The translations under genes were made by a program, and so were the position numbers. From a virus: a stretch of DNA of 64,000 nt. The notes beneath the pieces were generated by a model that had not been told where the DNA came from, ran no database searches, and worked only from the letters and a program-made list of their open reading frames with translations. Location: IMG/VR virus record IMGVR_UViG_3300032893_000012, positions 32,001-96,000 of that record, one strand, 5' to 3'. Of the stretch, positions 1-34,473 are shown piece by piece (position 1 is the first letter of the stretch; each line of letters starts with the position of its first letter).

Positions 1-1003
1 AGCCGGCCGCCATCTGAAAACCCCTCGTTGCATCGCCAGGCGCGACGGATTTGATAGCTTCTGCGAGCCCCGGTGTCGACGAAAGCGCTTGCTGTCCGGC
101 GGCAAGTACCGCCTGAAGCCCTTCAGGCGCGATACCGACGAGTCCTTTCGCAAGTGCGTTTTGGATCTTCTCGCCGGTTGCGACAGAAACGCCGATGTCG
201 AACGCTTTTCTGGCGGGACCATCCGGAACAAGATTTCGAGCGCTCTCGATTGCGGCCTTGGCGACGTTCTCGCCAGAGGCGACTTTCATCGCAGCGTCGA
301 AACCGGCAGCGGCGATAGGACCACCCGGGATCGCTCCGCGGATTGCAGCCTTCGCCGCTTCGTCGATACTTTTACCCTCGGCGAGCGCTGCGCCTGCTCC
401 GATAGCTGCCGCGACTCCGGTACCGATACCCGGGACGAGAGACACGACGGTTTGTGCGTACGGAGCAACGTCTTTGACGATTTTGACCTGATCCTTGAGC
501 GCTCCAACGAGTGCGTGATCGAGTCGTTCGCCAGTTGCGATGTTTTTTGCGAGATTGAGAGGTGCGACCGCTGCCTCACCAACGATATGCGCCAAATCTC
601 CTACGACTGGGATGCTCGAGATGGCGTGACCAACATCTGAGATCGCTTTGCCGGGATCGAATCTTGTGGTGATTGTCCAGCTTCGCTTGGCGGCATCGCG
701 TAGGTAGCGGTCGTGATCCTCTTTCCTCTTCGGAGTCGACTGCCAAAACTTGTCATCCGGGCGCGTGTTGACATCGTTGGGTTTGTCGTAACCGTTCATC
801 TCCGCAAGTCGTGCGGTACGCGCCGCTATTGCAGCCGTGTCATTGGCTTCGGTCTCTTTTCGAAGCGCAATTCTGTTGGCGTCCACATCCTGAATCACAG
901 CCATCGCAAAACCGGTCCAGCGCTGGCGGTCGGCGTTGGTCGCATTTTTGATGTGTATCTGAAGCCATCCGGGCCATTCGCTTCCAAGTCCTATTTCGTC
1001 CAT
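1..1003 (-). CDS. Ala/Gly-rich putative virion/membrane protein, 3' end beyond window
   Basis: Read manually: ATG at 1003 gives MDEIGLGSEWPGWLQ... and the frame appears open to position 1. Amphipathic Ala/Gly-rich helices; N-terminal IGLG motif. Confidence 0.75.
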   Translation of the reverse strand, partial: MDEIGLGSEWPGWLQIHIKNATNADRQRWTGFAMAVIQDVDANRIALRKETEANDTAAIAARTARLAEMNGYDKPNDVNTRPDDKFWQSTPKRKEDHDRYLRDAAKRSWTITTRFDPGKAISDVGHAISSIPVVGDLAHIVGEAAVAPLNLAKNIATGERLDHALVGALKDQVKIVKDVAPYAQTVVSLVPGIGTGVAAAIGAGAALAEGKSIDEAAKAAIRGAIPGGPIAAAGFDAAMKVASGENVAKAAIESARNLVPDGPARKAFDIGVSVATGEKIQNALAKGLVGIAPEGLQAVLAAGQQALSSTPGLAEAIKSVAPGDATRGFQMAAG

Positions 1004-1007
1004 GGCG

Positions 1008-1403
1008 TCAAGATCGTATCACCATCTTGAGAAAATGGGGATTGGTCAAACCGTTGCGAATTCGCTGGATTCGCCGCGCGGCTCGAGGTCCAGGAACACC
1101 GAGTTCTACGAGTGCCAGTCCCGCGATGACCCCGGAACGGTTACGCCCCTGCCAACAAGTTACGAGTACGCGTTGTCCGGAGCGAATTTGCCGAGCGACT
1201 TCGTACGCGGTGTCTCTGATCAGTGCTTTCTCTTCTCTGGTCGGCGGAGGGCCGTCGTCGAGCGGTACATGAATGACTTCGTATCCGGGTATCTCCGGTT
1301 GGTATTCGATTGCCGCGAGCACGATAGTATCGAATGGGATTTCGACGCTAATCGGCGGAGCACTTCCTTGCGCTAACCTTTGCGACAGATACGAATACCC
1401 CAT
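1008..1403 (-). CDS. Dual-specificity protein phosphatase (CX5R)
   Basis: P-loop VLVTCWQGRNRSG, general-acid loop PLDDG, C-terminal IRNGLTNPHF. Start at 1403 overlaps the upstream stop (TGATG). Confidence 0.85.
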   Translation of the reverse strand: MGYSYLSQRLAQGSAPPISVEIPFDTIVLAAIEYQPEIPGYEVIHVPLDDGPPPTREEKALIRDTAYEVARQIRSGQRVLVTCWQGRNRSGVIAGLALVELGVPGPRAARRIQRIRNGLTNPHFLKMVIRS

Positions 1404-1789
1404 CACGTTGCGGCGAGTAGGGTCACTCCGTGATGCAACCCCCATGGCTTCACCGGCCCTCCAGGCTCATGGTAGTGCTGCTCGATCCATGTAGCGTACA
1501 TTTTCCCATCCGAAGCTGTAAACGGTGCGAGTGTTCCGTACGGCATCGACGTAAATCCAGGGGTACTTCGAAGAGCGTTTGCCTGTGCACGTAGATCTGA
1601 TGTGACCTCAGAACTGGTTACTCGACGCCACCCGGGTGGTACGGCAAGCGAGACTTTTTTAGTTTCTCCGTAAGTAGTGGGTGGTACTGCTGTTGATACA
1701 ATCGGTGTTGCGCGTGATTTTCGCGCAAGAAGAAACACAGCTGTTGCTGCTGCGGCTGCTCCTCCAAATACGATCCAGTTCGATTTCAA
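1403..1789 (-). CDS. N-terminally membrane-anchored protein with His-rich C-terminal domain
   Basis: Hydrophobic N-terminus; IEQHYHEPGG...WGLHHGVTL motif; coupled to neighbours. Confidence 0.7.
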   Translation of the reverse strand: MKSNWIVFGGAAAAATAVFLLARKSRATPIVSTAVPPTTYGETKKVSLAVPPGWRRVTSSEVTSDLRAQANALRSTPGFTSMPYGTLAPFTASDGKMYATWIEQHYHEPGGPVKPWGLHHGVTLLAAT

Positions 1790-2346
1790 GCGAACCTTCG
1801 CACTGGTAGTGTTCGGTAGGCTACGTATCCAGCGGTCGCTGCGAGACCAAGAGCAGCGACCACCACAAGCGCATCAGATCCTTTAGTGCGCTGTGGCGCG
1901 ATCACTTGTGTTTCAGGCTGCACGTCTTGAAGTCTAGCAATCAACTTATTCAAAGATGGGTACGTGCTACCGAGATACGAATTCAAAGCGTTCTGCCACG
2001 CGGTTACGTCGCCTGAGTCTGCCGCCACAAGGCCGCCGTATCGATCCAGAGCCTTCAGCATCGAATACGCACCGGATCTCGCGTCTGAGAATGCGCGGAA
2101 TTTCAGTGGCGAGGAAACTTTTGGATTATAAAACCACGATACATCGTCGCGCGACGTGGTCACATTTCCGACGTTCCAGTTGTACATCGATTGCCACTCA
2201 GCTGTTTCGTTTGCGCTGAGCGCTAGTGGCCAAAGCCACGAGCTTTTTGCCGGAAGATCGCGAGATCTCAGCGTACGATACGCCTCGACAATAGCGCCGG
2301 CGACGTGCGGCGCATTACTCGGCGTTAGAGCGGCGGCGACCTGCAT
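1786..2346 (-). CDS. GH73/glucosaminidase-like peptidoglycan hydrolase with C-terminal TM anchor
   Basis: SANETAEW..MYNWNVGNV and KFRAFSD motifs resemble lysozyme-fold FlgJ/GH73 enzymes. C-terminal TM plus basic tail. Confidence 0.6.
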   Translation of the reverse strand: MQVAAALTPSNAPHVAGAIVEAYRTLRSRDLPAKSSWLWPLALSANETAEWQSMYNWNVGNVTTSRDDVSWFYNPKVSSPLKFRAFSDARSGAYSMLKALDRYGGLVAADSGDVTAWQNALNSYLGSTYPSLNKLIARLQDVQPETQVIAPQRTKGSDALVVVAALGLAATAGYVAYRTLPVRRFA

Positions 2347-2464
2347 TAGCGCGAAGGGGTACGACGCGGTTCCGGATCTGGACCTGGCGCGACGGAAGGC
2401 GAACTCGTATCGAGTTTCGTGCTGCGTACGACTTCAAGCTTCGGTGGTTCGTATTTTTCTTTCG

Positions 2465-3904: not shown

Positions 3905-3914
3905 CGCGATGTTC

Positions 3915-4406: not shown

Positions 4407-4409
4407 AGG

Positions 4410-7400: not shown

Positions 7401-9854
7401 TCCAGGCAGGCCTGTTGGTCCAGTAATTCCGGTTGGTCCTGTGGGTCCCGTGCGTCCGGTGGCTCCGGTGTTCGAAGCCGTACCGGCGGGGCCGGTCGCG
7501 CCGGTTGGTCCCGTGCGTCCGGTCGCCCCCGTGTTCGCGGCGCTGCCGGCGGGCCCCGTGAGTCCTGTCGGTCCCGTGAACCCGGTGGGTCCCGTGACGC
7601 CGGAAGGGCCCGTGACAGTGCTTGGCGCGCCTGGAATCCCTTGCGAGCCGGTGGGCCCAGTCGTTCCGGTCGCGCCCGTGTTTGTCGCCGTGCCCGCAGG
7701 CCCGGTCGTGCCGGTTGGCCCTGTCGCTCCGGTATTGGTTGCGCTACCGGCGGGGCCAGTTGGGCCACTCGGGCCCGTCACGCCGGAGGGACCGGTCGCG
7801 CCGGTGTTTGTCGCGCTTCCCGCGGGCCCCGTAGATCCTGTGAACCCGGTAGGCCCAGTGCTACCGGTCGACCCTGTCGCTCCAGTGTTCGACGCAGTCC
7901 CCGCGGGTCCAGTCGGACCCGTCGCTCCCGTACGACCGGTCGCCCCCGTGTTCGTCGCGCTACCGGCGGGACCCGTCGCGCCAGTCGGTCCAGTATGCCC
8001 GGTAGTGCCCGTTGGACCCGTGACCGTGCTCGGTGCTCCGGGAGGGCCAACGGGCCCCGTACTTCCGGTCGCGCCGGTGTTCGAAGCGCTTCCCGGGGTG
8101 CCGGTTGGTCCAGTTGCACCGGTCGCGCCGCTTGCGCCAGAAGGACCCGTCGCTCCGGTATTCGTTGCGCTTCCAGGGACTCCGGTTGGTCCCGTGTAGC
8201 CGGTCGGTCCTGTCGCTCCGGTATTTGTCGCTGAACCAGGGACGCCGGTTGGTCCCGTCGCGCCTGTCGGTCCAGTCGTACCCGTCGCACCGGTGTTCGT
8301 TGCACTGCCGGCGGGGCCGGTTGCTCCGGTTGGACCTGTAGGTCCAGTGCGTCCGGTCGCGCCGGTGTTTGCTGCGCTGCCAGCAGGACCCGTTGCGCCA
8401 GTCTGTCCGGTTGGTCCTGTGCGTCCCGTAGATCCGGTTGAAGAAGCTCCAATGGGCCCAGTCGCGCCCGTGGAGCCTGTGAATCCAGTCGGACCTGTTT
8501 GACCCGTCGCTCCGGTGTTCGTCGCGCTGCCAGCGACGCCGGTAGGACCGGTGATGCCAGTGGGACCTGTTGGACCGGTAGCTCCGGTATTTGTCGCGCT
8601 TCCGGCTACGCCCGTCGGTCCAGTGAATCCAGTTGGACCGCTCGCACCAGTGGATCCAGTTGCACCAGTATTTGTTGCTGATCCGGCGGGTCCTGTTGCG
8701 CCCGTCGGGCCTGTTGGACCTGTTCTACCTGTCGCACCGGTGTTTGCGGCGATGCCTGCTGGACCGGTTGCACCGGTTCGTCCAGTTGGACCTGTCGCGC
8801 CTGTCGCTCCCGTGTTCGTGGCAGAGCCGGCGGTACCGGTCGGGCCTGTCGTACCTGTTGATCCGGTAGGACCGGTCGCTCCGGTATTGGTTGCACTTCC
8901 TGGAGCACCAGTCGCTCCGGTGGCACCAGTCGGACCGGTGGCGCCAGTGGCGCCTGTATTCGTTGCTGATCCGGGTGCACCGGTTGCGCCAGTTGGACCA
9001 GTTGAACCGGTCGCTCCTGTGGCTCCTGTGTTTGCTGCGGTTCCGGCGGGACCTGTTGCACCAGTGACTCCGGTCGGTCCTGTTCTTCCGGTCGCTCCGG
9101 TGTTGGATGCACTACCCGCCGGTCCAGTTGCACCGGTTTGTCCTGTTGGACCGGTTGTGCCGGTTGCCCCGGTGTTTGTTGCAGATCCAGCAGTACCGGT
9201 AGGACCAGTGAATCCCGTTGGTCCAGACGGACCTGTAGCACCGGTGTTTGTCGCAGATCCGGCGACACCGGTAGGACCCGTGAAACCAGTTGAACCTGTT
9301 GGTCCAGTTGCTCCTGTATTAGTTGCTGATCCGGCGGGACCCGTTGTTCCGGTTGCCCCAGTTGGGCCAGAGGGACCTGTGGCGCCTGTATTTGATGCGC
9401 TACCAGGAATTCCAGTTGCACCCGTTGGTCCGAGTGCGCCAGTTGGGCCAGTTATACCAGTAGGTCCAGTAGATCCAGTCGCTCCGGTGTTTACGGCTGT
9501 GCCCGCGGGTCCTGTAGCTCCAGTGCGTCCAGTGGGTCCCGTCGCGCCGGTATTCGTAGCCGATCCTGGAGCCCCAGTAGGACCAGTATTTCCGGTCGAT
9601 CCGGTTACACCTGTGGGCCCAGTAGCACCTGTGTTCGTTGCGGATCCAGCCGGACCAGTAGTGCCAGTGGGTCCAGTTTGTCCTGTTGCGCCAGTGTTCG
9701 TCGCAGTGCCGGGAGCTCCTGTGGGTCCGGTAGGTCCAGTTGGACCGGTTGCGCCGGTAACGCCGGACGCACCGGTTGCGCCGGTAACGCTCTTGTGCGC
9801 ATCGGGGTAGGTCTCCCCGTGGTAACGCCCGCGCCTACCGGTGATGTAACCCAT
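4410..9854 (-). CDS. Collagen-like fibre protein 1 (1814 aa) with beta-helix-like head
   Basis: Roughly 1200 aa of G-X-T triplets with periodic GSATNT interruptions, a small inserted globular domain, and a C-terminal head starting [14 protein letters not shown]. Confidence 0.9.
5840..9787 (-). repeat. Collagen (Gly-X-Thr)n coding repeat, fibre 1
   Basis: Degenerate 9-bp period, interrupted by a non-repeat domain at about 6130-6450. Confidence 0.9.
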
Positions 9855-10641: not shown

Positions 10642-11190
10642 TTATCCAGTTGGCGCTGACACCTCTTGCAGATCGAGAGACGATCCTTCCGACAGAATCA
10701 CAATGAGATTGTCGGCGTTTGCGGTCACATGAATGCGAACATCCGCCAGTACACCAACCGGTGTCTGAATTGCCGTTGTCTCTATGAGAAATGGTACCGC
10801 TTCCAAAGCGGTAGTGTTTCCACCGCTACCGATCCCGACTGTATTAGTGAAAATAGGAACCGGAGACGATAGAACAACGTTGTTGATCGATACTTGCACT
10901 TCAACTGATCCGGCGGCAGCAGGATCGTTCGACGTGTTTTTTAGAGACAGTACACCGGAGATGCGAACGATTCCGGTGGAAAGAGGAGTGATTGGTACAG
11001 CAGTTCCTGCAGGAGCGCCGCTAGCGATAATTTCCCAAGGTACCTGCGTTCCAACACCGGTTGACACGACGTCGGTTTGATCCGTTGGCCCGGTTGCGTA
11101 ATTCCGCGCGAAATCATTGTTCGTACCGACGCCACGAGATGTTGGATACACCTCTGGAGACTTGCGCTTACTGTTTGTGAGATATCCCAT
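10642..11190 (-). CDS. Short spike/vertex-associated protein (stalk-less fibre paralogue)
   Basis: N-terminus MGYLTNSKRKSPEVYP shared with both collagen fibres, followed by a beta-sandwich-like domain. Confidence 0.65.
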   Translation of the reverse strand: MGYLTNSKRKSPEVYPTSRGVGTNNDFARNYATGPTDQTDVVSTGVGTQVPWEIIASGAPAGTAVPITPLSTGIVRISGVLSLKNTSNDPAAAGSVEVQVSINNVVLSSPVPIFTNTVGIGSGGNTTALEAVPFLIETTAIQTPVGVLADVRIHVTANADNLIVILSEGSSLDLQEVSAPTG

Positions 11191-11439: not shown

Positions 11440-12798
11440 CTATTTTCGCTTCTTCGTCTTCTTTGAAGGCCTCTTGTGAGGTGCGCTTCGCGCACTCTTC
11501 TTTCCTGTAGCCGCAAGCGCAACTACACCGACGAGTGCCGCGACACCGAGACCGCCGGCAACGAGCGCTCCGGTGCTGAGTCCTTTTTGTTCAGGCGCTG
11601 CGACTGTAGGTTGAGAGGGTCCTACCGGGGTGACCGTTGTTGTAGATGTTGCCGTGACTGGCGAAACGCCTGGTCCAGGAGGGGGAGGCGTAGCTTCTAT
11701 AATTGGCTGAACGGGAAGAGAGGGTGGCGTTGCCTGCCATCCTGCAGACGTAGTTGTTGCAGGCGTAGAAGGCGGCGTGAACACGGGAGGCTGCAGTGAT
11801 GCGCCACCGCACTTGTTGTCGGTCGCTTTCCCCCACCACAGCGGCGCTGGGCTGCACGGCGCTGGAGCGCTTGGCAGAAATCGTCGCAGAGCGTTTGCGG
11901 TATTGGCGCCGTACTTACCATCCGCCGGAAGGCCAAGGGCCGCCTGTGCCGCGCACACCATTGCTGCGTTGCCGGAGTAGCAAGGATCGATCGATACGAG
12001 TGCCTGTACGGCGGTCGGAATCGACGTCGGAATGATCGTAGGAACGGTTGAGACCTGTACCGGTGCAGGAACTGGCGGCGGTGGTACCGATGGCGCAGCA
12101 CCGCATCCAGGTGGAGCGGGAATACCGCCTAGAGCAGATGAGAGCGCGGAGGCTACGACCGGTTCGTACTTACCTGTGTTGATCGGTACCGCTTGTCCAG
12201 GATTGGCTGCGTTCCATGCTGCTTTGAAATTGTGGACAGCTGTGTTTACCGGAGTACCGCTCCGGGCGACACTGGAGCAGTAGTTCGGATCGGCCATGAT
12301 TGCCGCAGAAGCCGCAGCGGCCGCTGCCGCAAGCGATGCTGTGGCAGCGATCGGTGTAGCCACAGCAGGGATTGCGGCAGCCGCAGCCGGGAAAGCACCA
12401 CCGAGTGCCGCTCCCCAAGTGTTTGGCCCGACGACACCATCTGGAGCGACTCCGTGCGCGCTCTGCCATTTGCGTGTCGCGGCGTCTGTGCCGGAACCGA
12501 AGATACCATCAGCAGTAACCCCGATGATCGTTTGCCAGAGAGCAACGTCTGGACCAGTGCTTCCTTGCTTGATCAAAGAGTGCGGCGCAGAGGGAGATGC
12601 GGGAGCTATCGCGCCGAGTGCGCCAACTGTGCCAGGTACGTTCAGCGTCTCGCCAGCGTGAAGTGATCGCCAGGTGCGAACCCCTGCTACCACCGTCGTT
12701 GCCTTGTGCGGATTTGCCGCCACCAGTGAACCCAACGGCATACCGAATTTGCGAGCGATGATCGACGGGCTCTCACCGCTTCGAACTGAATAACGCAT
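11440..12798 (-). CDS. LysM + peptidoglycan-binding protein, C-terminal TM anchor
   Basis: N-terminal LysM (YSVRSGESPSIIA...ANP); PG_binding_1-type repeats (ADGIFGSGTDAATRKWQ, PDGVVGPNTW); Pro/Thr linker; TM plus Lys/Arg tail; AAGGAG upstream. Confidence 0.85.
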   Translation of the reverse strand: MRYSVRSGESPSIIARKFGMPLGSLVAANPHKATTVVAGVRTWRSLHAGETLNVPGTVGALGAIAPASPSAPHSLIKQGSTGPDVALWQTIIGVTADGIFGSGTDAATRKWQSAHGVAPDGVVGPNTWGAALGGAFPAAAAAIPAVATPIAATASLAAAAAAASAAIMADPNYCSSVARSGTPVNTAVHNFKAAWNAANPGQAVPINTGKYEPVVASALSSALGGIPAPPGCGAAPSVPPPPVPAPVQVSTVPTIIPTSIPTAVQALVSIDPCYSGNAAMVCAAQAALGLPADGKYGANTANALRRFLPSAPAPCSPAPLWWGKATDNKCGGASLQPPVFTPPSTPATTTSAGWQATPPSLPVQPIIEATPPPPGPGVSPVTATSTTTVTPVGPSQPTVAAPEQKGLSTGALVAGGLGVAALVGVVALAATGKKSARSAPHKRPSKKTKKRK

Positions 12799-12828: not shown

Positions 12829-13545
12829 TCAGCGCCCGCGGCGCCCCTTCTTCGTAGCAAGCAGAACGATACCGCCGAGTGCGGCCGCCCCTGCCACACC
12901 GATTCCGACCATAGCTCCCGTGGAAAGCTTCTTGTCGGACGCTGCTGCGACTGGAAGCGGCGCTGCACAGTATTGTCCGCTCGGCTCAGGGAACACGTCG
13001 TAGTCCTTTGGGTGCATCTTCGCGATCATGATGAGCGCGCAGAGCGTATCTTCATCGAATGTGCCGTCGGTTCGGAGCGCCTTGCTCGGACCGCCCTGTC
13101 CGGCGTAGTTCGCGTTGTACCAAGCCTGAAAGCAGCCGCCGGCCAGATTGATCGCGGGTCCCCATGTCGGACACGGCTTGGATCCCTGCGCAATGATCGC
13201 ACTGTTCAGCTTGTTCAGCGTATTCGACACCCACATTTGTTGTGGCTGCGTGAGCTTGCTCCAGATCTCCGGATCACTCGGACTGTCGAGCGCGAAGCCA
13301 AGCGCACCTCTACCTCCTATCGAAAGGTGCTCTGCAACGAAACCTGATCCATTACCTCGAACCGGAGAGAGTGATTGCTGTGCCCACATTGGAATTGGTC
13401 CTTCACAATCGACGCATGCTGGTTTTCGCGTCGGCAGTCGTTGCTGTTGAATGCAGTCGGCCGAACGGAGACCCTCATCGGTCGGGCCTTGTACGGGGAC
13501 GTCTGTAACGAAATTCGGATGCCCGTAAGCTTGAGCGGGGGTCAT
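12829..13545 (-). CDS. Tail-anchored protein with PG-binding-like motif
   Basis: LRTDGTFDEDTLCAL; C-terminal LSTGAMVGIG TM plus basic tail. Confidence 0.7.
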   Translation of the reverse strand: MTPAQAYGHPNFVTDVPVQGPTDEGLRSADCIQQQRLPTRKPACVDCEGPIPMWAQQSLSPVRGNGSGFVAEHLSIGGRGALGFALDSPSDPEIWSKLTQPQQMWVSNTLNKLNSAIIAQGSKPCPTWGPAINLAGGCFQAWYNANYAGQGGPSKALRTDGTFDEDTLCALIMIAKMHPKDYDVFPEPSGQYCAAPLPVAAASDKKLSTGAMVGIGVAGAAALGGIVLLATKKGRRGR

Positions 13546-13766
13546 GGGAACCTCGGTGGAGCTAATTGCTGTTGCGGCTGCGGATCAGGCCCGGCGCCGA
13601 TCGCTGCACCGACAAAACCGCCAAAGACCGCTCCGAGTGCGACGCCTGCCTCTTGAGCGTCACCACGGGTTAGTCCTCCAGGGAATCTGGTTGCGAGCTG
13701 TTCACCGACGATCGCTCCCACGATGACGCCAAGTCCGCCGCCGAGTCCAGCTAACGCGCGGCTCAT
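13542..13766 (-). CDS. Small glycine-zipper membrane protein
   Basis: MSRALAGLGGGLGVIVG...GAVFGGFVGAAIG; paralogue at 28237-28488; ATG overlaps the upstream stop. Confidence 0.65.
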   Translation of the reverse strand: MSRALAGLGGGLGVIVGAIVGEQLATRFPGGLTRGDAQEAGVALGAVFGGFVGAAIGAGPDPQPQQQLAPPRFP

Positions 13767-15494: not shown

Positions 15495-16832
15495 TCAGCC
15501 AGCCTTCTGCACGAGCTGCGGCGCGTTCTGGCTGCAGTATGCCTTCCAGCCGCCGGGCATTTCCCAGCCCTTGATCTTGATACCGATCTTCAGGATGCCA
15601 CCCTTGAAGACCTCTCGGCAGACGTTGACCGACTGCTGGATCAGCACCGGCGTCGCGTCGAGCGTCTGCTCCAACATGACGTTGTTTGCGCCTGAAGCAA
15701 TGGCGCCTGCGGTCGGTACACCGTTGCCTGCCGCAGCCCCCACCTGTGTCGAACAGGAAAGATTCGTGTCCGGCGAGATGTTGACACCGAGAGGCTCGTT
15801 GTTGATCGTGACTGCCTGGAGCATGAGCGCCTGGTGCACGGCGTCCTGCACGACGAACAGCATGCCGATGGGGATACCGCGCTCGAGGAAGCACGGACTC
15901 TCGATCGGCCGGTACATCTGGCCACGGCAACCGTAGCCCTGCCACCGGAGACCGCCCCACGTAACCGGTGCGAGATCGAAGTCGCGCGTCGGGTGGAACA
16001 CGCCGACGTTGTTGGTCGCGCTCGTGCTGTTGACGCTGCCGACGCGCCTGAAATTCACCGGAAGGAAGATCGTCGCCGATCCCTTCGAGCGATAGAGCGC
16101 GTTGACCGCAGCCACGAATTCGATGATCGGCACCTCGCTCGTGCCGCTCGCTTCGGCGTCCGCGAAGGATCCGAAGTACGAGACGTCGGCCGCGAGCTCG
16201 TTCAGTACGAGCTCACGCTGCGAGGTCTTCCATTGGAACTGGTAGGCGTTGATGAAGTTCCAACCTGCACGCCACACGTCGGCACCGAACTCGAACACCG
16301 CCGGAGACGGCGGCGTATCGCTCGTCGGAGTCGCGCCGGCGAACTGTCCACCGAGTGCGCCGTTGAAGAGATCGTTGGCGGTGAACACGTCCGGTGAAGG
16401 AGGCGGAACCTGCGTCGTTGCCGGCGCCGCGAAAGCGTTGCCGATCGTCGAGAAGCTCATTGGTTCGCAGAAGGTGTGCACGCCGACTCCCTGAGCGAGG
16501 ATATCGGTTTGCAAGATCCCGTTGATGAGGAACGTCGAATCGATCGACGCCACTCCGGGCACGCTCGATGAACCGCTGAGCAGGTTCACCGTGTCTCCGA
16601 GAGTGGCGAGCGCCTCCTCGGCAGTGAGCGGCAGAGGGATCGTCCAGACCACCTCTTCGATGACGGGGATGTTGCCGAATGAGCAACGAAGGCACTTGTC
16701 CATCGCGGCTGCGGCGAGCGTGCCGTCGATCTTGTTGGGGTCGAGACCGAGTCCAAACTGCGGACGCGCCACTTTCGGCTGGTCTCCGCCGAAGGTCTTG
16801 ATGGTTCTGCCGATGATGCTTCTCGAGGACAT
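15495..16832 (-). CDS. Candidate major capsid protein (445 aa)
   Basis: AGGAG then ATG (MSSRSIIGR); flanked by hairpins; beta-rich, ending LKIGIKIKGWEM; N-terminal FGLG motif. No HK97 motifs recognised. Confidence 0.5.
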   Translation of the reverse strand: MSSRSIIGRTIKTFGGDQPKVARPQFGLGLDPNKIDGTLAAAAMDKCLRCSFGNIPVIEEVVWTIPLPLTAEEALATLGDTVNLLSGSSSVPGVASIDSTFLINGILQTDILAQGVGVHTFCEPMSFSTIGNAFAAPATTQVPPPSPDVFTANDLFNGALGGQFAGATPTSDTPPSPAVFEFGADVWRAGWNFINAYQFQWKTSQRELVLNELAADVSYFGSFADAEASGTSEVPIIEFVAAVNALYRSKGSATIFLPVNFRRVGSVNSTSATNNVGVFHPTRDFDLAPVTWGGLRWQGYGCRGQMYRPIESPCFLERGIPIGMLFVVQDAVHQALMLQAVTINNEPLGVNISPDTNLSCSTQVGAAAGNGVPTAGAIASGANNVMLEQTLDATPVLIQQSVNVCREVFKGGILKIGIKIKGWEMPGGWKAYCSQNAPQLVQKAG

Positions 16833-16891
16833 GATTTTTCGAGCTCCTGTTTTGCTTCGCCGTTTCTCTGGGCCGACGCGAAGCGTCTCTG

Positions 16892-16933
16892 ACACCTCAA
16901 CCCCGGGGCTCGAGGCCTACCGGGGCGAGGTGT
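16892..16933 (-). promoter_or_regulatory. Long stem-loop in the leader of the capsid candidate
   Basis: ACACCTC..CCCCGG-GGC / GCC..CCGGGG..GAGGTGT inverted repeat. Confidence 0.5.
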
Positions 16934-18897: not shown

Positions 18898-20529
18898 TTA
18901 TCGGATGTTCGGGTAGAGCAGATCGAGCAAAGTTGTGCGTTTACGGTGCACGCCGCCGAGCGAGCCTTCGCTCATACCAACGAAGTCTCCCGCACCGATC
19001 TCTTTTGCGGTCTTCCCTGGTTCGACCCACCACTCTTTTGCGTTGGGAGAGACGTGTCCGACGGGATAGTTCGTCGTTCCGTCCATTCTCACCCAATCTC
19101 CGAGGTCATCTTCGAACGCCATGAATACGTGTGTCGGTACTTCATACGGCGCACGGTGACTGCTTCCGATGATCATGGCGTCGATACCGATCGACATCAC
19201 CGCTGCGGCGAGCGTGATAGCCGCTTCGTCACAGTTGCTTACGGTTACGTCGTGCTCTGGGAGGTAGACGTAGTGATCGTCGGTAGAAATATCCCAGCAA
19301 GGGACTTTTCTGACGGATCGATCTATCGATCGAACCGACAGTGTGAGTGATCCTTTCTCCCGTTGACCGACACGCCACAGAGGATGCTTTCCAGCTCCGC
19401 CATGTTGCTCTGGAGTGAGCATTTTAACGCTTGTCATCTTGCCGAACATACGATGCAGTACGCGCACCTGAAGCATGAGTTGTCTGCTAGTCGTCGAATA
19501 CGTACGCGTGGCGGCGCCGGTGTTCTTCGTGCTATCGGCCATCAATCCGCGCAAGGCCGCAGCGGCGCTAGCCTCTTCGAGATTAATCGTTTCCAGATGT
19601 TTAAATCTCGCTCGAGATCCTAGTCCGGCTATCCGTGAAGCCCATTCTCTATCTTTGATCTCGATGTATTTCGCGTGCCAGAGAGTCTCGATCCCGAGGC
19701 GTTCGCAGATGGCCTTGACCTCATGCTTCTGTTCTTCTTTGCGTTTGCCGTCGCGACCGCCAATGCGAAATTTCAGATGCGGCAGATTTTTGTTTTTGCT
19801 CGCTTCCACCCATCCGTCTGCGAGCGTCAGAGCTTCGACGTACATGCGATCCGGATCAACTCGCATCGATCCGAAAACGATACGTTCTGGTTGGAGAAGT
19901 GCGTCTCCCTCCGACAGATCAGTCACGCGGACACGCTCAAATGCGTTGCAATCTTTTTGGTAGCAGGCTCCGTGTGCTGACCGACCGTGCGGACACCTGC
20001 CGACATATACCTTGTGATCGCCGGTCAAATGCATCGTCGAGCCGTTGCTCATCTCGATAGCATCGACCGAAAGCGCTCCTTTTGCCCATTTTTGCGTAAC
20101 TTCGCTCCACTTGTCCTTGCCCCAGATACGATCGCCGATATTGATCTTTTCGATCGGAATGAATTCAAAATCGTCGCGTAGGAGCAGCGTTCCTTCCGGG
20201 AAGCAATCGCCGCCGATGATGCAAAGCCCTCCCTCGTCGAGACAGAGAAGCTGGTTCGGTGTCGCCATAAATTCTCCCATGACTGGGTCAGCGACGTACG
20301 GAACCTTCTTTCTGAAGGCATCGAGAATACACTGCGCCTTTTGACGTTTCCCGCCACGTGACACGCCTTTTTTGTCGAGCTGTTGGAGCACCCAGGCGCG
20401 CAATCTCGGACTCATTCGTGCGGACCATGCGCGGTCGGCCACCTCTTGCAAGGATTTCTTCGCTCCCTTAGCGCCAGCAGGGTGCGGTCCAGCATCTGTC
20501 TTCACTCCATTTATAGGCTTGTCGATCAT
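18898..20529 (-). CDS. Transglutaminase-like cysteine enzyme interrupted by an intein
   Basis: Spliced sequence GGD|CDEAAITLAA...THVF...WVRMDGT gives a Cys-His-Asp triad; 219 aa after splicing. Confidence 0.85.
   Translation of the reverse strand: MIDKPINGVKTDAGPHPAGAKGAKKSLQEVADRAWSARMSPRLRAWVLQQLDKKGVSRGGKRQKAQCILDAFRKKVPYVADPVMGEFMATPNQLLCLDEGGLCIIGGDCFPEGTLLLRDDFEFIPIEKINIGDRIWGKDKWSEVTQKWAKGALSVDAIEMSNGSTMHLTGDHKVYVGRCPHGRSAHGACYQKDCNAFERVRVTDLSEGDALLQPERIVFGSMRVDPDRMYVEALTLADGWVEASKNKNLPHLKFRIGGRDGKRKEEQKHEVKAICERLGIETLWHAKYIEIKDREWASRIAGLGSRARFKHLETINLEEASAAAALRGLMADSTKNTGAATRTYSTTSRQLMLQVRVLHRMFGKMTSVKMLTPEQHGGAGKHPLWRVGQREKGSLTLSVRSIDRSVRKVPCWDISTDDHYVYLPEHDVTVSNCDEAAITLAAAVMSIGIDAMIIGSSHRAPYEVPTHVFMAFEDDLGDWVRMDGTTNYPVGHVSPNAKEWWVEPGKTAKEIGAGDFVGMSEGSLGGVHRKRTTLLDLLYPNIR
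19234..20205 (-). mobile_element. Intein (324 aa) with LAGLIDADG-type homing endonuclease remnant
   Basis: Block A CFPEGT, block B LTGDHKV, block C ALTLADGW, block E LRGLMADS, blocks F/G CWDISTDDH...TVSN|C. Confidence 0.9.
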
Positions 20530-21578
20530 CGGCGATTACGCTTTCGGTTTGTCAGATAGATCGCACTTCCTACGACTCCTGCCCCGAGGAGTCCGATTCC
20601 CGCCATCGCTCCGACGCTGAGTCCAGATGATGCAGTCGCTACAGGTGCAGCAGGCGTGATAGGCGCAACAGGTGATACGGTTACATGCGGTGCGCACGCA
20701 GTCGGAGCGCTCCCTAGCGCCTGCGCTAGAGCGCTCGCTGTCGCTTGCTCGTAGTTGCTCGTGTTGATCGGAACTGGGTTAGCGCCGGACGAATTCCAAG
20801 CCGTTTTGAAGGCGTGAACCGCTGCGTTGACGCTGCTTCCGGGGTGCGTCACCGACGTGCAGTAACTCGGATCGGCGACAATGGCGGCTACTGCGGCTCG
20901 TGCGGCATCGGCTACTGAGGTAGGCGGCGCCGGGACATCGCCGTAAAACGCTTGCAGCGCTAGCCTAGCCGATGACATCGCATCCGAGAGATCGTGTAAG
21001 ACGTCCGAACGAACCTGAAAGGAATCGTTGCTATTTCCGGCAACGATTGCAGCACTAAGCGCCGGAAGTCGAGCGCGCGCTTTACTGGTGCTCTTACGTA
21101 CGTCTTGCGCGTACGGGATTGCGTACACCGCAGGGGACCCACTGCCGACGATTTCCGAGACCGATGCATCCACAACATTGGCAGCATTTTCAGCGGCGTC
21201 GCCGAATCCTTGATCTCCCATCGCAGCAAGCGCACTGACCTTCGCATTCGCCGCATCGAGCGCGGCGTAGTCGGCGAGCACTCCAGCGGCCGCATCACCG
21301 AGAGACGATGGCGTGACGCCATCCATATGAGGAAGCGCAGCGAAGTACGCCCGGGGACGCGTATCCAGTTCGCCAGAGAACCACTTCTCCGGTAAGTTGA
21401 GAACCTCGCCCTCGCGTAGATCTTTGAACGTAACGAAACCGTTCGGAAGACGCTTTGCCGCCTTGTGAGGGTTGGCGCGCACGATGTCAATTGCGCATTT
21501 TGGGCAGCCAGCCATGTCCGGCCGACTGGCGATACTAGCCGGGCTATCTCCAGCCTGAACGACGTAAGTCCGCGTCAC
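20526..21578 (-). CDS. LysM-like protein with C-terminal TM anchor
   Basis: YVVQAGDSPASIA...ANPHK; shares an ADPxYC..VN.AVH.FK.AWN domain and the anchor with 11440-12798. Confidence 0.8.
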   Translation of the reverse strand: MTRTYVVQAGDSPASIASRPDMAGCPKCAIDIVRANPHKAAKRLPNGFVTFKDLREGEVLNLPEKWFSGELDTRPRAYFAALPHMDGVTPSSLGDAAAGVLADYAALDAANAKVSALAAMGDQGFGDAAENAANVVDASVSEIVGSGSPAVYAIPYAQDVRKSTSKARARLPALSAAIVAGNSNDSFQVRSDVLHDLSDAMSSARLALQAFYGDVPAPPTSVADAARAAVAAIVADPSYCTSVTHPGSSVNAAVHAFKTAWNSSGANPVPINTSNYEQATASALAQALGSAPTACAPHVTVSPVAPITPAAPVATASSGLSVGAMAGIGLLGAGVVGSAIYLTNRKRNRR

Positions 21579-23780: not shown

Positions 23781-24170
23781 TCAAACTTGCGCCTGTCCGC
23801 CCGTCGTCTGCTGCGGTTCTTCCTCTTCTGGTTCGGTTCCGTCAGATTCGGCTGCCTCGAGTTCGTCAGCGAAGACCTCGAGAGGCATCGCCTCTTGTAC
23901 GAATCGAATTCGACCCATTGGAACGAAGTCGCGCATACCTACTGCGTCACCACCTTCAACCGCATCCAAATACGAGAAAATCTCGATTCCTCCGCCCGCA
24001 TCTGTTCCAATGAACATACGTACGACTTTCGCGCCTGGCACGTGCGGATGCTCGCTACCCACCGCCCATCGTGTGGTCTCAGGCTGCCCCGATACGGGAG
24101 CTAGATTGTCACTGATCACGAGTGTGACCATTGGATAGGTCGGAGGCGGAAGCTTAAAAACTGTCGTCAC
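23781..24170 (-). CDS. Hypothetical protein with acidic tail
   Basis: 129 aa, coupled to neighbours. Confidence 0.6.
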   Translation of the reverse strand: MTTVFKLPPPTYPMVTLVISDNLAPVSGQPETTRWAVGSEHPHVPGAKVVRMFIGTDAGGGIEIFSYLDAVEGGDAVGMRDFVPMGRIRFVQEAMPLEVFADELEAAESDGTEPEEEEPQQTTGGQAQV

Positions 24171-24769
24171 AGCGCGTTATCCTCCAAGAATGAGTAGTAG
24201 CTCCGCCTACGAGCGTCGCCGGCGACGATAATGTGGTCGAGGAACTTGATGTCAATGGTTTCGAACGCATCAACGAAGGCGTCTGTCGTTTCGATGTCCG
24301 CCTCGCTCGGTTCGGCTTCGATGCCCGACGGGTGTACGTGGAAGATGATCACCGCGTGCGCCCCGTCCGCTACGGCGGCTTGAAGAGTCGGTAGGATGGG
24401 TGCCATCACGCTGGACGGCTCCCCACGTCCGGTCTCAGCAAGACCCTTGAATCGTAAATGCAGATCAAGCGTCACGACTCCGAAAACCTCATTGACCTCG
24501 TCTTCGATGGCCTCACCGATGAGATGGAAGGCCTTTTCCGGTTCGTCGAGCGGTCCGATCTGATCTGAGAGCGCGTTACACGCCGCGAACCTGTCAGCGT
24601 CCTTCTGAATCGTCAAAAACGGACGGCACCGCGCGCCGCGCTTGCCATCGATGATGAGCGGTTCTACTTCGCGCGGTCGTCGCGGGGCCACCCGATCCCG
24701 TACAATACCGCGGATGGCATGTTCCGAGACTCCGTGCATGCGAGTAAGCGGCCTGCACGCGCAAGTCAC
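24167..24769 (-). CDS. radC: RadC-like JAB/MPN domain protein
   Basis: EVFGVVTLD...FHVHPSG..EPSEADIETT...LDHIIV matches the RadC JAB pattern. Confidence 0.85.
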   Translation of the reverse strand: MTCACRPLTRMHGVSEHAIRGIVRDRVAPRRPREVEPLIIDGKRGARCRPFLTIQKDADRFAACNALSDQIGPLDEPEKAFHLIGEAIEDEVNEVFGVVTLDLHLRFKGLAETGRGEPSSVMAPILPTLQAAVADGAHAVIIFHVHPSGIEAEPSEADIETTDAFVDAFETIDIKFLDHIIVAGDARRRSYYSFLEDNAL

Positions 24770-25954: not shown

Positions 25955-26368
25955 ATGGCACAGTTCGGCATCGGACCTGAACTCGCGGCACAGTGCCCAC
26001 AAGCGTCGACGCCAGACGGTTGGCGTCCGTGGTCACCTGACGCAGATGGGCCAATTCCGGACGCTCTAGCTGCGCGCGCGGCTGCTCTTGTGGGCGATCA
26101 GGCGACCGCGCTCGGAGCGACAGAAAGCTATCCTCTTCCAGGGGTTACGACACTTATTCGAATCGAACCACGTGTCTGGGGACGCGATGCACAGGGCGCA
26201 CTCGTCGAGGGGTGCTTTCGAAGTGGCGGTGTCTATCTACCGTACGGAACCCCGGCAGGCGCAGCGACACCGAGCGACGACAAGCTCGCAAAAACAGTTG
26301 GAGTACTCACCGCGGTGAGCCTGGTGGTCGGAACTGCGGCAACGATTGCTACCTGGGGACGTCGATGA
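25955..26368 (+). CDS. Tail-anchored membrane protein
   Basis: MAQFGIGP start; C-terminal TM plus GRR. Confidence 0.65.
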   Translation: MAQFGIGPELAAQCPQASTPDGWRPWSPDADGPIPDALAARAAALVGDQATALGATESYPLPGVTTLIRIEPRVWGRDAQGALVEGCFRSGGVYLPYGTPAGAATPSDDKLAKTVGVLTAVSLVVGTAATIATWGRR

Positions 26369-26547
26369 CCATCGAACGTAATGGTCGTACTGTTGTTGGA
26401 TTCGGAGATGAGGCTGTTTCGCTTCCGATCAAAGCGCCGCCGTCGACGTGGACCGTTGCGCTCGCGACGAGCGTCGTTGGCGCTGCGACAGGATGGGTCA
26501 TCGAGGAAATAGCGAGCAACATCCGAGGTCGAAAGAAGCGCCAATAA
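26365..26547 (+). CDS. Small membrane protein
   Basis: MTIERNGRTVVGFGD...TM...RGRKKRQ; ATGA coupling. Confidence 0.6.
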   Translation: MTIERNGRTVVGFGDEAVSLPIKAPPSTWTVALATSVVGAATGWVIEEIASNIRGRKKRQ

Positions 26548-27170
26548 TGAACGAGCAGATTCGAATCAATGGCGCATCTGTCGTCGGGCTCGGGGACGCG
26601 AAAGTTGTGGCGCCTCCAAGTTCCCGTGTAGCGCAAACACTCGCGGATGCTTTTCTCGGTGCGGCAGCGGGAGCAGGGCTCGGTGGGCTTATCGGAGGGA
26701 AGACTGGCGCACTAATCGGCGTCGCGGTTGGGGGTATCGGTGTGGGAGCAGTTACGTATGCGGTGCTGGGAGAGGATACGTGGAATACATCACCTCTACC
26801 TCCAACAACGACATCTGTCTGGCGCCAGCTCACTCAACCGACTGACAGCGTGAAGGCGGGAGAGGAGATGGCCGTAGCGATCTTAGGACCCAACAGGACA
26901 CCTCTGTCGCCGGATCTGATCGCGCAGCTAGATGCTGCACTTGCATTGATTCCTAGCTACAACGTGACGGCGCTCATAGCGAAGTATCCGCCAGGAACAT
27001 CGCCGCCTGCAAACGATTGGCCCTCAGACTATGTGATACCGCCCGGAATGAGAGATGATTTCGGTCCCGGCGCGTATCGCGTGCTACTTCGTGCGCTTAT
27101 CGATTCCCCTCCGACGTTCTGGCACTCCGTACCATCAAATGTCGGGACGTTCGGAATATGGGCACGATGA
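26547..27170 (+). CDS. Glycine-zipper membrane protein
   Basis: MNEQIRINGASVVGLGD, Gly-zipper TM hairpin; TAATG coupling. Confidence 0.65.
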   Translation: MNEQIRINGASVVGLGDAKVVAPPSSRVAQTLADAFLGAAAGAGLGGLIGGKTGALIGVAVGGIGVGAVTYAVLGEDTWNTSPLPPTTTSVWRQLTQPTDSVKAGEEMAVAILGPNRTPLSPDLIAQLDAALALIPSYNVTALIAKYPPGTSPPANDWPSDYVIPPGMRDDFGPGAYRVLLRALIDSPPTFWHSVPSNVGTFGIWAR

Positions 27171-27721
27171 AGTACGGCGGTTACTCTGAAGCGGAGGCAA
27201 CGATGATCTTTCTCGGCGAAACGGCGTTCCTAGGCGCGTGTCCCGTCATTCGGCCGGAAGGGATCTATCTCGATGGGCAGCGTGTGATTAGATTTGGGCT
27301 CGGTGCCGTAGAACGCAAAAATCCGCTACCTGCAGGAAGATACTGGGTCGATGTTTTCGCAAAAGATTCAGACGCTTTTGGCGCATGGCTCAACTCAAAT
27401 AAAGCCACCGTTCAGGTACGCACAACGGAACATTTTGACTCGGATCCGGTACGTGATTGGTACCTGTTTGAAGTAAGCGTTCCGACTCCGTGGCAGGGAC
27501 CTGGTTTTCCAACTATCGCTGGGCCGCACGTAACGAGTTCGAGCGATACCGCACAACGACCCGATCCAGTACCTTCAGTCGCGACACAGGTTGAAAAAGA
27601 ACTCGCGGATCTGAAAAGCGCAACCAGAACCGCGACATGGATCGGTGCTGCGGTTCTCGTCGTGGTTGGTGGAGCTCTACTCGTCTACTACGTACCTCGC
27701 CCTGCAACGCGATCTAGATGA
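27167..27721 (+). CDS. Tail-anchored membrane protein
   Basis: RFGLGA motif, globular domain, C-terminal TM. Confidence 0.65.
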   Translation: MKYGGYSEAEATMIFLGETAFLGACPVIRPEGIYLDGQRVIRFGLGAVERKNPLPAGRYWVDVFAKDSDAFGAWLNSNKATVQVRTTEHFDSDPVRDWYLFEVSVPTPWQGPGFPTIAGPHVTSSSDTAQRPDPVPSVATQVEKELADLKSATRTATWIGAAVLVVVGGALLVYYVPRPATRSR

Positions 27722-28488: not shown

Positions 28489-28500
28489 GGAATTTTGCTT

Positions 28501-28899: not shown

Positions 28900-28925
28900 C
28901 TCCTCATGCTACCATATCTTTCGCC

Positions 28926-30447: not shown

Positions 30448-30472
30448 TCTGGATACCTCCGGCGTCGATGAC

Positions 30473-33440: not shown

Positions 33441-33829
33441 TGTTCCCCCTCCTCTGGCTCCTCCTCGGCGCCGGCCTCGGTACCGGCGTCACGCTCCTTG
33501 TCAAACAAGCCTCGAGCTCGACGCTGCTACCGGGGCAAGTCTGGACCGTCGTCATGCTTGCCCGTCCAACAAAGGCGTGGGTCGACATCTCGAAGGGCGA
33601 CGTCGCGCGAGCAATCAGAGCAGCGCTGGCGAACATCGGCGTTTATCCGATCGATGCATTTTGGAGCGGCAACTACCAGCTCACTGTAGCGGTCTCCGTC
33701 ACCGCAACGACTGAGCTAAAAACGGGTGCTGCTCTCACGCTCAATTCCGAATGGGCTGACCAGGCAACGATCACCAGCATCAATCAGGCGCCAGCGTCAG
33801 TGCCGGTTCAGATCCCAAGATTCCCCTAG
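33440..33829 (+). CDS. N-terminally anchored membrane protein
   Basis: MFPLLWLLLGAGLGTGVTLLV; TAATG coupling. Confidence 0.65.
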   Translation: MFPLLWLLLGAGLGTGVTLLVKQASSSTLLPGQVWTVVMLARPTKAWVDISKGDVARAIRAALANIGVYPIDAFWSGNYQLTVAVSVTATTELKTGAALTLNSEWADQATITSINQAPASVPVQIPRFP

Positions 33830-33841
33830 GAGTGATAATTC

Positions 33842-34192
33842 ATGGCCGAATGGAGCAGAGCGCACGCCGACAAGTACGCCAACCAGATCGAAGATCTAGA
33901 AAAGCGGCGATTGATCTCGGCCAAGAAGTTTCGCAAAGAGGTCTCGGGCATGATCAAGCAGTTCGTCGCTGACGATAACGAGCTTCTTCAGAAGATACTC
34001 AACTACGAAAACAAGTTAGAGGAATGGGGGATCACGTCCCTTGCCTCTAAAGACGAAGTCGATTCGAGTTCACTCAGTGAACCGCGGGACTACGTCGTGG
34101 ACCAGATCGAAGAAGACGTGTTCGAAGATCTCAGAGAACAGATCGAAGAAGCGGATGAACAAGAAGAAGAAGATGACGAGGAGGGAGACTGA
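33842..34192 (+). CDS. Acidic hypothetical protein
   Basis: AGGAG upstream; Glu/Asp-rich C-terminus. Confidence 0.65.
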   Translation: MAEWSRAHADKYANQIEDLEKRRLISAKKFRKEVSGMIKQFVADDNELLQKILNYENKLEEWGITSLASKDEVDSSSLSEPRDYVVDQIEEDVFEDLREQIEEADEQEEEDDEEGD

Positions 34193-34473
34193 TGCACCTA
34201 TCCGGAGGATTCGAAGATGCTCCAGGTGAGACGGTGCGCCCCCCATGCGCCGCTCTGCCCTCCGGGCAAGCTGCGTACAATCTGATCTCCGGTGACTGGG
34301 GTGCGTTGCTACCTACGATCGGGACTACTGCCGCGCGCGCCGCACTGATCGGAGTCGGAATGGCGGTCGCTGGCGAACGAAAACATCTCGTGCGCAACGC
34401 AGTCGGCGGCGCACTGGCGGTCGAGGGGTTCGTGCTCCTGTGGGCCGCTGTGACACGAAACGCACGGACTTGA
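34192..34473 (+). CDS. Small membrane protein
   Basis: MHLSGG start, two hydrophobic helices. Confidence 0.6.
   Translation: MHLSGGFEDAPGETVRPPCAALPSGQAAYNLISGDWGALLPTIGTTAARAALIGVGMAVAGERKHLVRNAVGGALAVEGFVLLWAAVTRNART

Follow-up and report, generated by a model that had tools for sequence, protein, structure and literature searches.

A conserved N-terminal signal ending in Gly-x-Gly on a capsid-protein candidate and membrane proteins of an uncultured virus, and a transglutaminase-fold enzyme as its candidate protease

Introduction

In bacteriophage T4, internal proteins carry capsid targeting sequences that are cut off by the prohead protease gp21, an assemblin-type serine protease, and the leader consensus is L/I-x-E. 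The adenovirus protease adenain cuts at (M/I/L)XGX-G and (M/I/L)XGG-X, and the proteases of African swine fever virus (ASFV) and poxviruses cut at Gly-Gly or Ala-Gly; Gly-based cleavage sites are typical of viral papain-like and adenain proteases. In staphylococcal phage 80alpha, the leaders of capsid and scaffold proteins are cut by the host protease Prp at a motif of ribosomal protein L27. Transglutaminase-like cysteine proteinases of the LapG type cut the N-terminal module of LapA at an Ala-Ala site. Encapsulin cargo-loading peptides are retained, are usually C-terminal and bind an HK97-fold shell. In this study, we analysed a stretch of 64,000 nucleotides (the window), bases 32001-96000 of one 109,321-bp virus record of IMG/VR (IMGVR_UViG_3300032893_000012; 59% G+C). 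A short motif, hydrophobic-Gly-x-Gly (G-x-G), recurs there near the N-termini or at domain junctions of a capsid-protein candidate and of unrelated, mostly membrane-anchored proteins. An initial annotation of the window had listed eleven instances, read them as a maturation-cleavage or assembly signal, and named a Cys-His-Asp transglutaminase-like protein as the best protease candidate.

Of the described systems, the T4 targeting sequences with gp21 and the adenovirus protease code come closest, and the window differs from them in motif, enzyme fold and substrate class. As in T4, a short N-terminal leader is common to unrelated virion proteins and to the putative capsid protein. However, the T4 leader is known to direct incorporation and to end at a protease consensus, whereas cutting is only predicted here, at hydrophobic-G-x-G in place of L/I-x-E. 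A transglutaminase-fold cysteine enzyme is the candidate, and the carriers are membrane proteins of an apparently tailless virus. The likeness to adenovirus lies in glycine-based, here putative, maturation sites spread over many particle proteins of a virus with a jelly-roll capsid, which is weakly indicated here. VVGFG and VVGLG match the adenain site if Val is allowed at P4, but PFGLG or QFGLG of the capsid candidate and MAQFGIG do not, and P4 is often not M/I/L (Pro or Gln in the capsid candidate). The candidate enzyme also differs from adenain by its papain/transglutaminase-fold C-H-D order. The analogy with adenoviruses and poxviruses drawn in the initial annotation is a resemblance only.

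The other systems share single aspects with the window. In 80alpha, one short N-terminal leader motif is likewise found on several structural proteins and a cysteine protease removes it, but there the enzyme comes from the host and the motif is copied from a host protein, whereas a virus enzyme is the main candidate here. LapG is likewise of the transglutaminase fold with a Cys-His-Asp triad, and it takes an N-terminal module off its substrate at a small-residue motif, a step that is predicted in the window; it is, however, a periplasmic regulator with one adhesin substrate, and its fold match to the window enzyme is weak (E about 0.1). Encapsulin cargo peptides resemble the tag as short conserved Gly/hydrophobic terminal peptides on flexible linkers that are common to unrelated proteins. 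They differ in that the shell protein itself is tagged here, and in that the shell looks jelly-roll-like, on weak matches (Z up to 6.6, predicted local distance difference test score (pLDDT) 57).

Results

The G-x-G motif ends a longer N-terminal signal

All eleven strings of the initial annotation were found in the sequence, at or close to the genes named for them. In this study, we found that the motif closes a longer signal of the approximate form M-x(2-5)-[VI]-S-[RF]-[NG]-G-R-x-V-x-G-F-G-[LV]-G-[DE]. Alignment of 26 N-termini gave the consensus x-E-x-[VI]-S-[RF]-[NG]-G-R-x-V-x-G-F-G-[LV]-G-[DE]. A 20-column hidden Markov model (HMM) was built from these N-termini, and its search covered four whole genomes and 26 loci, divided into 10,836 stop-to-stop segments. 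At a threshold of at least 10 bits it matched 38 open reading frames (ORFs) and no reversed decoy; 26 of the 38 are seeds, which match by construction, and 12 are new. In nearly all matches, the profile start has an ATG at -1 to +4 codons, and the sequences downstream of the signal fall into 15 clusters that are not linked by BLASTP. In number of matches, unlinked clusters and N-terminal placement, the signal is shared in the manner of a T4-type leader. A six-frame scan showed many further ORFs in relatives that begin likewise.

The carriers range from 60 to about 760 residues. A strong transmembrane (TM) segment lies in the last 50 residues of 24 of the 38, and most have at least one. At the conserved positions, all four Gly codons and four Val codons occur. 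Since synonymous codons vary freely there, including at the conserved glycines, selection acts on the peptide, and an RNA or translation signal conserved at the nucleotide level was rejected. A Rossmann GxGxxG reading was also rejected, as a linker and no helix follows the motif and some carriers have only 60 residues.

The leaders in front of the constant G-x-G are interchangeable: three residues, a hairpin, a 25-residue basic arm, a LysM domain, or LysM with an insertion of about 300 residues. Such exchange at a constant G-x-G fits a cut site or a junction signal. In its full form, the tag is probably a beta-hairpin-like N-terminal stretch. Its minimal form, as judged from the sequences, appears to be hydrophobic-G-hydrophobic-G close to the start or at the junction of two domains, with a variable linker rich in Ala and Pro behind it. 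These results suggest that the tag is very probably a functional assembly signal.

Positional enrichment of the motif

Enrichment was counted over the genome's own approximately 145 ORFs, with the first 60 residues compared to the remainder. The loose form [GAS][LIF]G, which the initial annotation had proposed to count, was barely enriched (37 in 8516 residues versus 73 in 23899; odds ratio 1.4, p=0.05) and is over-inclusive as first worded. In contrast, G[LIF]G was found 20 times in the first 60 residues and 17 times elsewhere (3.3-fold, p=3e-4), and hydrophobic-G[LIF]G 10 and 5 times (5.6-fold, p=0.001). The expected preference for structural genes was borne out: within the first 60 residues, the motif occurred 6 times in the 33 ORFs of the virion module versus 4 times in 111 others (p=0.01; per residue 6/1980 versus 4/6536, p=0.014). 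When the N-terminal 60 residues were shuffled, 8-10 observed copies stood against 3-4 expected in three genomes, and 14-28 of 2000 shuffles equalled the observed count; in the most distant genome, the enrichment was not significant. Enrichment of the motif alone is only moderate, and the signal is judged real because of its conservation in homologues and its extended form.

The capsid-protein candidate carries the motif behind a basic leader

16746..16832, minus strand: 25-residue basic leader with FGLG (16746-16757) of the capsid-protein candidate, gene 15495-16832

The leader of about 25 residues ends in K-V-R-R-V-P-F-G-L-G-x-x-P-G. Among 27 homologues, F26, G27 and G29 are at least 90% conserved. 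Variability within the protein peaks directly behind the motif, where insertions reach about 20 residues. Two homologues with 45-47% identity have leaders of only 7-12 residues and keep M-I-G-L-G-A. A copy on a Polyangiaceae contig from a metagenome-assembled genome (MAG; 51% identity) keeps T-P-F-G-L-G. In about 30 IMG/VR relatives, conservation of the motif extends to capsid homologues of only 45% identity and to five further families (genes 25955, 26365, 26547, 27167 and 1003), in which the flanks diverge or are replaced.

The structure model of the capsid candidate is of low confidence (pLDDT 57), and its Foldseek search had no match below E=1. With VIA-align, only generic jelly-roll or beta-sandwich folds were matched (Z up to 6.6), so that on this weak evidence from the model the protein may be jelly-roll-like.

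The non-coding DNA before the gene (window about 16833-16895; in frame ..ARVGPGNGE..) is conserved across relatives. It was seen in L002, L003, L005, L008, L011 and L025, about 60 nucleotides before position ~10001, and could be a late promoter or leader element.

The transglutaminase-fold enzyme is a core gene interrupted by an intein

18898..20529, minus strand: transglutaminase-fold Cys-His-Asp enzyme, candidate protease, 543 residues, split by an intein
19234-20205, minus strand: intein of 324 residues, Hint/LAGLIDADG, directly before the catalytic Cys
19231-19233 (C433), 19123-19137 (His) and 19081-19095 (Asp), minus strand: catalytic residues of the window enzyme

The triad of the window enzyme lies at residues 433, 467 and 483, and the corresponding C109, H143 and D159 are invariant in 19 intein-free homologues, in the order Cys-His-Asp and in a G-x-C..H..D context. 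The insertion has weak Hint and LAGLIDADG_3 matches. It begins with CFPEG after GGD and ends with VTVSN before CDEAA, and its +1 Cys is the predicted catalytic Cys. About 21 homologues are intein-free alleles that lack exactly residues 109-432; the insertion is present in the window and in four relatives (L026, L009, L010, L007). On its domains, its boundary residues and the intein-free alleles, the insertion reads as an intein.

The assignment of the fold came from both profiles and models. The homologue of L001 matched Pfam Transglut_core (PF01841) with E=0.0033 over positions 15-107 of 108, at 18.1 bits with a gathering cut-off of 23, and precomputed PF01841 annotations were found on many of the 120 listed homologues (367 found). 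A model of the enzyme had a pLDDT of 75 and a predicted template modelling score (pTM) of 0.74. Its best Foldseek matches were almost all members of the transglutaminase superfamily (3isr, 4xz7, TglA, 3kd4, PeiP/PeiW, TgpA, PNGase, NAT, LapG); these matches are weak, with probability up to 1.0, E values of 1e-3 to 0.1 and none below 0.001. Among them are putative cysteine proteases, LapG (E about 0.1) and the pseudomurein endoisopeptidases PeiW and PeiP. The gene was present in all 26 related loci whose flank gave a match, the most distant included. These results indicate that the protein is a transglutaminase-fold enzyme and a core gene.

A search with tblastn of the protein against 50,697 phage records gave no match. 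By profile comparison, the enzyme is homologous to gp34 of phage SSIP-1 (hhalign probability 96.8%, E=2.5e-10), with the catalytic DCD/H/D aligned, and gp34 is annotated as a structural protein in the SSIP-1 record. As in the window, several late membrane proteins of SSIP-1 have G-[LM]-G near the N-terminus and a C-terminal TM segment. However, gp34 has a C-terminal TM segment whereas the window enzyme has none, and the SSIP-1 genome is 44 kb compared to 109 kb here. Nine other module families compared with all SSIP-1 late proteins by hhalign gave probabilities below 2%, and the hairpin profile had no match in SSIP-1. The transglutaminase-like nature that the initial annotation gave this protein is supported; the hairpin upstream of G-x-G, the C-terminal membrane anchors of most carriers and two other protease candidates had been overlooked.

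The enzyme itself has a tag-like GDFVGMSEGSLGG near its C-terminus (18952-18990, minus strand). Its C-terminal region consists of a conserved G-D-F-V-G-M-S-G, a variable linker and a conserved D-L-L-Y-P-x-I-R, and in L029 it reads Y-V-G-I-G...F-G-L-G.

Other tagged genes of the window

983..994, minus strand: minimal tag M-D-E-IGLG at the N-terminus of a 611-residue protein, whose gene runs from 1003 leftward off the window
12610..12630, minus strand: TVGALGA junction after LysM in a 452-residue LysM/PG_binding_1 protein with a C-terminal TM segment, gene 11440-12798
13288..13332, minus strand: internal full hairpin EHLSIGGRGALGFAL (listed at first as GALGF), residues 72-86 of a 238-residue protein with a C-terminal TM segment, gene 12829-13545
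13728-13751, minus strand: AGLGG inside the glycine-zipper TM helix of a 73-residue membrane protein
21294..21308, minus strand: SSLGD junction about 90 residues into the second LysM protein, with a C-terminal TM segment, gene 20526-21578; a weaker member
25964..25975, plus strand: minimal tag MAQ-FGIG of a 137-residue protein with a C-terminal TM segment, gene 25955-26368
26371..26409, plus strand: full signal IERNGRTVVGFGD (VVGFGD hairpin) of a 60-residue protein with a C-terminal amphipathic or TM segment, gene 26365-26547
26553..26597, plus strand: full signal EQIRINGASVVGLGD (VVGLGD hairpin) of a 207-residue glycine-zipper membrane protein, gene 26547-27170
27206..27307, plus strand: tandem or extended signal (IFLGE, AFLGAC, IYLDGQRVIRFGLGA; double hairpin ending FGLGA) of a 184-residue protein with a C-terminal TM segment, gene 27167-27721
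34195..34218, plus strand: degenerate remnant HLSGGFED (listed at first as LSGG) of a 93-residue membrane protein, gene 34192-34473

Nine of the eleven instances fit the conserved signal or junction motif, whereas AGLGG and LSGG are weak. AGLGG (13766) was dropped as a tag because it is part of a glycine-zipper TM helix. At 34192, six homologues begin ..ESISRGGR..GFGLGE and share ..C.ALPSG.. downstream with the window protein.

On the minus strand, homologues of the 611-residue protein in L034 and L035 carry the full hairpin (..IRIAGRLVDPFGLGA and MTVFLGEQLTSIGVGF). Homologues of this protein begin ..I-R-I-A-G-R-L-V-D-P-F-G-L-G-A or M-T-V-F-L-G-E-Q-L-T-S-I-G-V-G-F, and the N-terminal regions or domains behind the hairpin differ. 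At the LysM junction of the 11440 family, relatives read VP[VI]GVGA, RFGVGD or LGLGD, and the homologue of L031, which lacks LysM, starts MRNMPYPLGLGD. In this family, the motif is kept whether the leader is LysM, LysM with an insertion of about 300 residues, or seven residues only. The internal hairpin of the 238-residue protein lies at the same position in the homologues of L007, L006, L004 and L001, as profile matches. The SSLGD position of the second LysM protein reads S[ST]LGD, GSLGD, FGVG or GVG in relatives.

The plus-strand genes at 26-27.7 kb, which the initial annotation had marked as structural, belong to the tagged virion set, and their tags are conserved in relatives. MAQ[FY]G[AVI]G is kept in 15 loci of the 25955 family. 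The 26365 signal scored 29.1 bits against the signal profile, of which it is one seed. Its family, in 10 loci, keeps N-G-x-x-V-V-G-F-G-[QDE] or F-L-G-D-x-P-V-[VI]-G-F-G with a varying linker. The 26547 signal, also a seed, scored 22.4 bits, and its homologues read MNEQVFLNGAPVVGFGD and MHERISLNGVSVVGFGD. The start M-N-E-x-V-F-L-[NG]-G is common to the 26547 and 27167 families. Homologues of 27167 start MNETVFLGGCPVIRPEGIYL.G.RVIR.G.., and the true start of 27167 is probably the Met at residue 13. A lipobox reading of FLG[AG]C in this family was rejected, as no hydrophobic signal peptide lies ahead of it.

Three further sequence patterns were observed in these genes and their neighbours. In several families, a Cys-Pro lies within 3-10 residues behind the tag (L020 17128, L018 16070, L017 8209, L021 14464; in the window at 27230-27250 and 25990-26000), for example in G-E-N-F-C-P-T-L-P, G-E-P-P-A-M-C-P-A-L-P, F-L-G-A-C-P-V and G-P-E-L-A-A-Q-C-P. 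Several virion-module proteins share a three-part tail of [KG]-L-S-T-G-A-[ML]-V-G-I-G, a Gly/Ala/Val TM segment of about 20 residues and a C-terminal Arg/Lys cluster. It is found at the C-terminal ends of minus-strand genes at 11440-11560, 12829-12950 and 20526-20640 of the window, and in relatives at L007 6839, L006 7755, L020 16545 and L021 15093; its layout recalls the sorting signals of sortases, exosortases and rhombosortases. Three fibre or spike proteins, at 9800-9854 and 11140-11190 (minus strand) and 39673-39730 (plus strand), have M-G-Y-[IL]-T-..-(E)-[TV]-Y-P as their common N-terminus. Its form in relatives is M-x-x-I-[IV]-G-[LFW]-G-R-Y-x-R-E-T-Y-P, with hydrophobic-G-x-G inside, and the R-S-I-I-G-R-K of the capsid N-terminus resembles it.

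Other protease candidates encoded by the virus

57869..58417, minus strand: rhomboid intramembrane serine protease, 182 residues (PF01694, E=1.4e-17)
24167..24769, minus strand: RadC-like JAB/MPN protein near the virion module, a weak candidate (PF04002, E=3.5e-23)

The rhomboid scored 60.7 bits against a PF01694 cut-off of 22.6, and its GASGA and CHLGG motifs are intact. No rhombosortase signature of NCBIfam matched it. Of five complete relatives with the capsid motif, two have the rhomboid and three lack it; owing to this patchy distribution it was rejected as a universal enzyme for the motif. Rhomboids were found in 14 of 14 control cellular genomes. The RadC-like protein scored 76 and 67 bits against NCBIfam RadC models, under the curated cut-offs of 180 and 134, and has homologues in 21 loci; to our knowledge, no protease role has been demonstrated for RadC-JAB proteins. 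Among the families listed in Pfam scans of about 120 ORFs, there was neither an adenain-like protease (clan CE, Ulp1-like), divergent members of which could escape such scans, nor a prohead protease.

Genomic setting of the virus

The left arm holds replication genes (helicases, Dam methylase, nucleases and a Cas12f-like protein). The stretch from about 1 to 28 kb of the window, a block of orphan genes, includes collagen-like fibres, the two LysM proteins, one of them also with PG_binding_1, and many small proteins with a TM segment followed by a Lys/Arg cluster at the end. The main virion genes had almost no matches in Pfam and PHROGs, no terminase, portal or tail family was among those listed in the Pfam scans described above, and no tRNA was found in the window. 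These features belong to what is apparently a large (about 80-125 kb), tailless, membrane-containing bacterial virus. Relatives of the capsid candidate (45-90% identity) lie on 31 IMG/VR contigs, 5-125 kb long, in which gene order is kept. A blastn search with the capsid region as query gave no match among 50,697 phage records. A literature search on this virus group and on virus-encoded rhomboids found nothing relevant.

Capsid homologues also occur on the MAG contigs L058 and L059, labelled Ca. Binatia (85% identity) and Polyangiaceae (51%). Since the binning of viral contigs is unreliable, these labels are a host hint only. At the edge of the virion module, a 145-residue ORF (1008-1445, minus strand) had weak, sub-threshold matches to dual-specificity phosphatases (E about 3e-4).

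Discussion

In the scheme that we propose, the tag would guide the capsid candidate and unrelated, mostly membrane-anchored proteins into the particle as it assembles. A cut at the G-x-G end by the virion transglutaminase-fold cysteine protease (18898-20529) would then remove the leader from the tagged proteins. We infer incorporation, cleavage and the identity of the cutting enzyme from comparisons of predicted proteins and structure models. That the motif is cleaved at all is about evenly balanced. The whole scheme of entry followed by trimming is a serious possibility that falls somewhat short of an even chance, and the assignment of the cut to this particular enzyme is tentative. Cleavage is favoured because the G-x-G junction is kept while the leader is exchanged or shortened and a variable linker follows, and because a conserved virion cysteine enzyme, with a fold that includes proteases removing N-terminal modules, is always present. 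Papain-like enzymes favour a hydrophobic residue at P2 and tolerate Gly at P1.

Several observations weigh against this scheme. The PF01841 score of a single sequence stays under the gathering threshold (18.1 versus 23 bits), and the profile of the enzyme family found nothing among PDB sequences. The enzyme gene adjoins LysM and peptidoglycan-binding genes, and its fold matches include phage cell-wall endoisopeptidases; the enzyme could equally well be a wall-degrading entry or lysis enzyme of the PeiW/PeiP kind. The hairpin upstream of G-x-G is well conserved, which is more typical of a retained binding peptide. Some leaders have only 3-4 residues (MDE before IGLG, MAQ before FGIG), so that trimming would be without obvious purpose, and tag copies stand in tandem in the 27167 family. 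Depletion of GLG and GFG from protein interiors was looked for and none was seen (observed/expected 0.86 and 1.04); there is therefore no sign of selection against stray cut sites.

The strongest of the other explanations, though a somewhat doubtful one, is that the tag is a docking peptide that is never cut: tagged N-termini and the capsid N-arm would attach at one shared site, on either a hub protein or the shell's underside, and tether the membrane to the capsid. The terminal cargo-loading peptides of encapsulins, on flexible linkers, and the adenovirus fibre tail are parallels. The architecture of conserved hairpin, G-x-G, hypervariable Ala/Pro linker and protein body suits docking, as do conservation of the whole hairpin of about 17 residues beyond G-x-G, carriers that are membrane proteins whose N-termini would face the shell, the tandem copies and the undepleted interiors. 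However, the hairpin is dispensable in several families, and both the minimal tags and the short leaders of distant capsid homologues keep just hydrophobic-G-x-G. The motif also stands behind folded LysM domains, and the shell protein is itself tagged, unlike in cargo-loading systems. It is rather improbable that the motif is cut by another enzyme, whether a viral or host rhomboid, the RadC-like JAB protein, or some other host protease in the manner of Prp in 80alpha. Rhomboids prefer a large hydrophobic residue at P4 and a small one at P1, and a short N-terminal leader of Providencia TatA is removed by such an enzyme; in hydrophobic-G-x-G, the hydrophobic residue would fall at P4 and Gly at P1. 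The virus encodes an intact rhomboid, the substrates would be membrane proteins, a host copy could serve given the rhomboids in all 14 control genomes, and the RadC-like protein is conserved in 21 loci. Against a rhomboid stand its loss from three of the five complete relatives that keep the motif, the distance of the motif from TM segments, a P2' that is not hydrophobic, and a capsid candidate without a TM segment.

Two further readings carry less weight. The enzyme might modify the motif without hydrolysis (by transamidation, cross-linking or the attachment of lipid), or the motif might target tail-anchored proteins to the membrane or set their topology; together we consider these improbable. 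The transglutaminase fold does include true cross-linkers, with 4xz7 and TG2 among the matches, and the carriers are membrane proteins with unusual basic C-terminal tails; but no Gln/Lys pattern lies beside the motif, and the tag is not hydrophobic. That the motif recurs by chance, in a proteome rich in Gly, Leu and Ala, is highly improbable and is refuted for the core instances. This reading could draw on the 1.4-fold enrichment (p=0.05) of the loose motif, the non-significant result in the most distant genome, and the two of eleven instances that are glycine-zipper or degenerate. Nevertheless, 38 profile matches, 12 of them non-seed, were obtained versus 0 decoys with exact N-terminal placement, and the signal is conserved across homologues of 45-90% identity and 15 unlinked clusters.

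For the family as a whole, we tentatively suggest that an undescribed large clade of tailless, membrane-containing bacterial viruses may use a dedicated assembly code, in which a hairpin-GxG tag would load membrane and capsid proteins and a transglutaminase-fold protease would trim them, analogous to adenovirus and T4 and built from unrelated parts. If the tag is a loading and trimming signal, it would provide a sequence rule to recognise particle proteins in a large clade of uncultured tailless viruses, which has hundreds of metagenomic enzyme relatives and genes that are otherwise orphans. The scheme, if true, would mean that virion maturation has been solved independently a fourth time, by a transglutaminase-fold protease that reads a Gly-x-Gly code, in addition to the solutions known from tailed phages, adenoviruses, and poxviruses/ASFV. 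It would also provide a portable peptide with which such particles could be loaded with foreign proteins. Were the tag instead retained as a docking peptide, it would still show how an internal membrane is fastened to the capsid shell.

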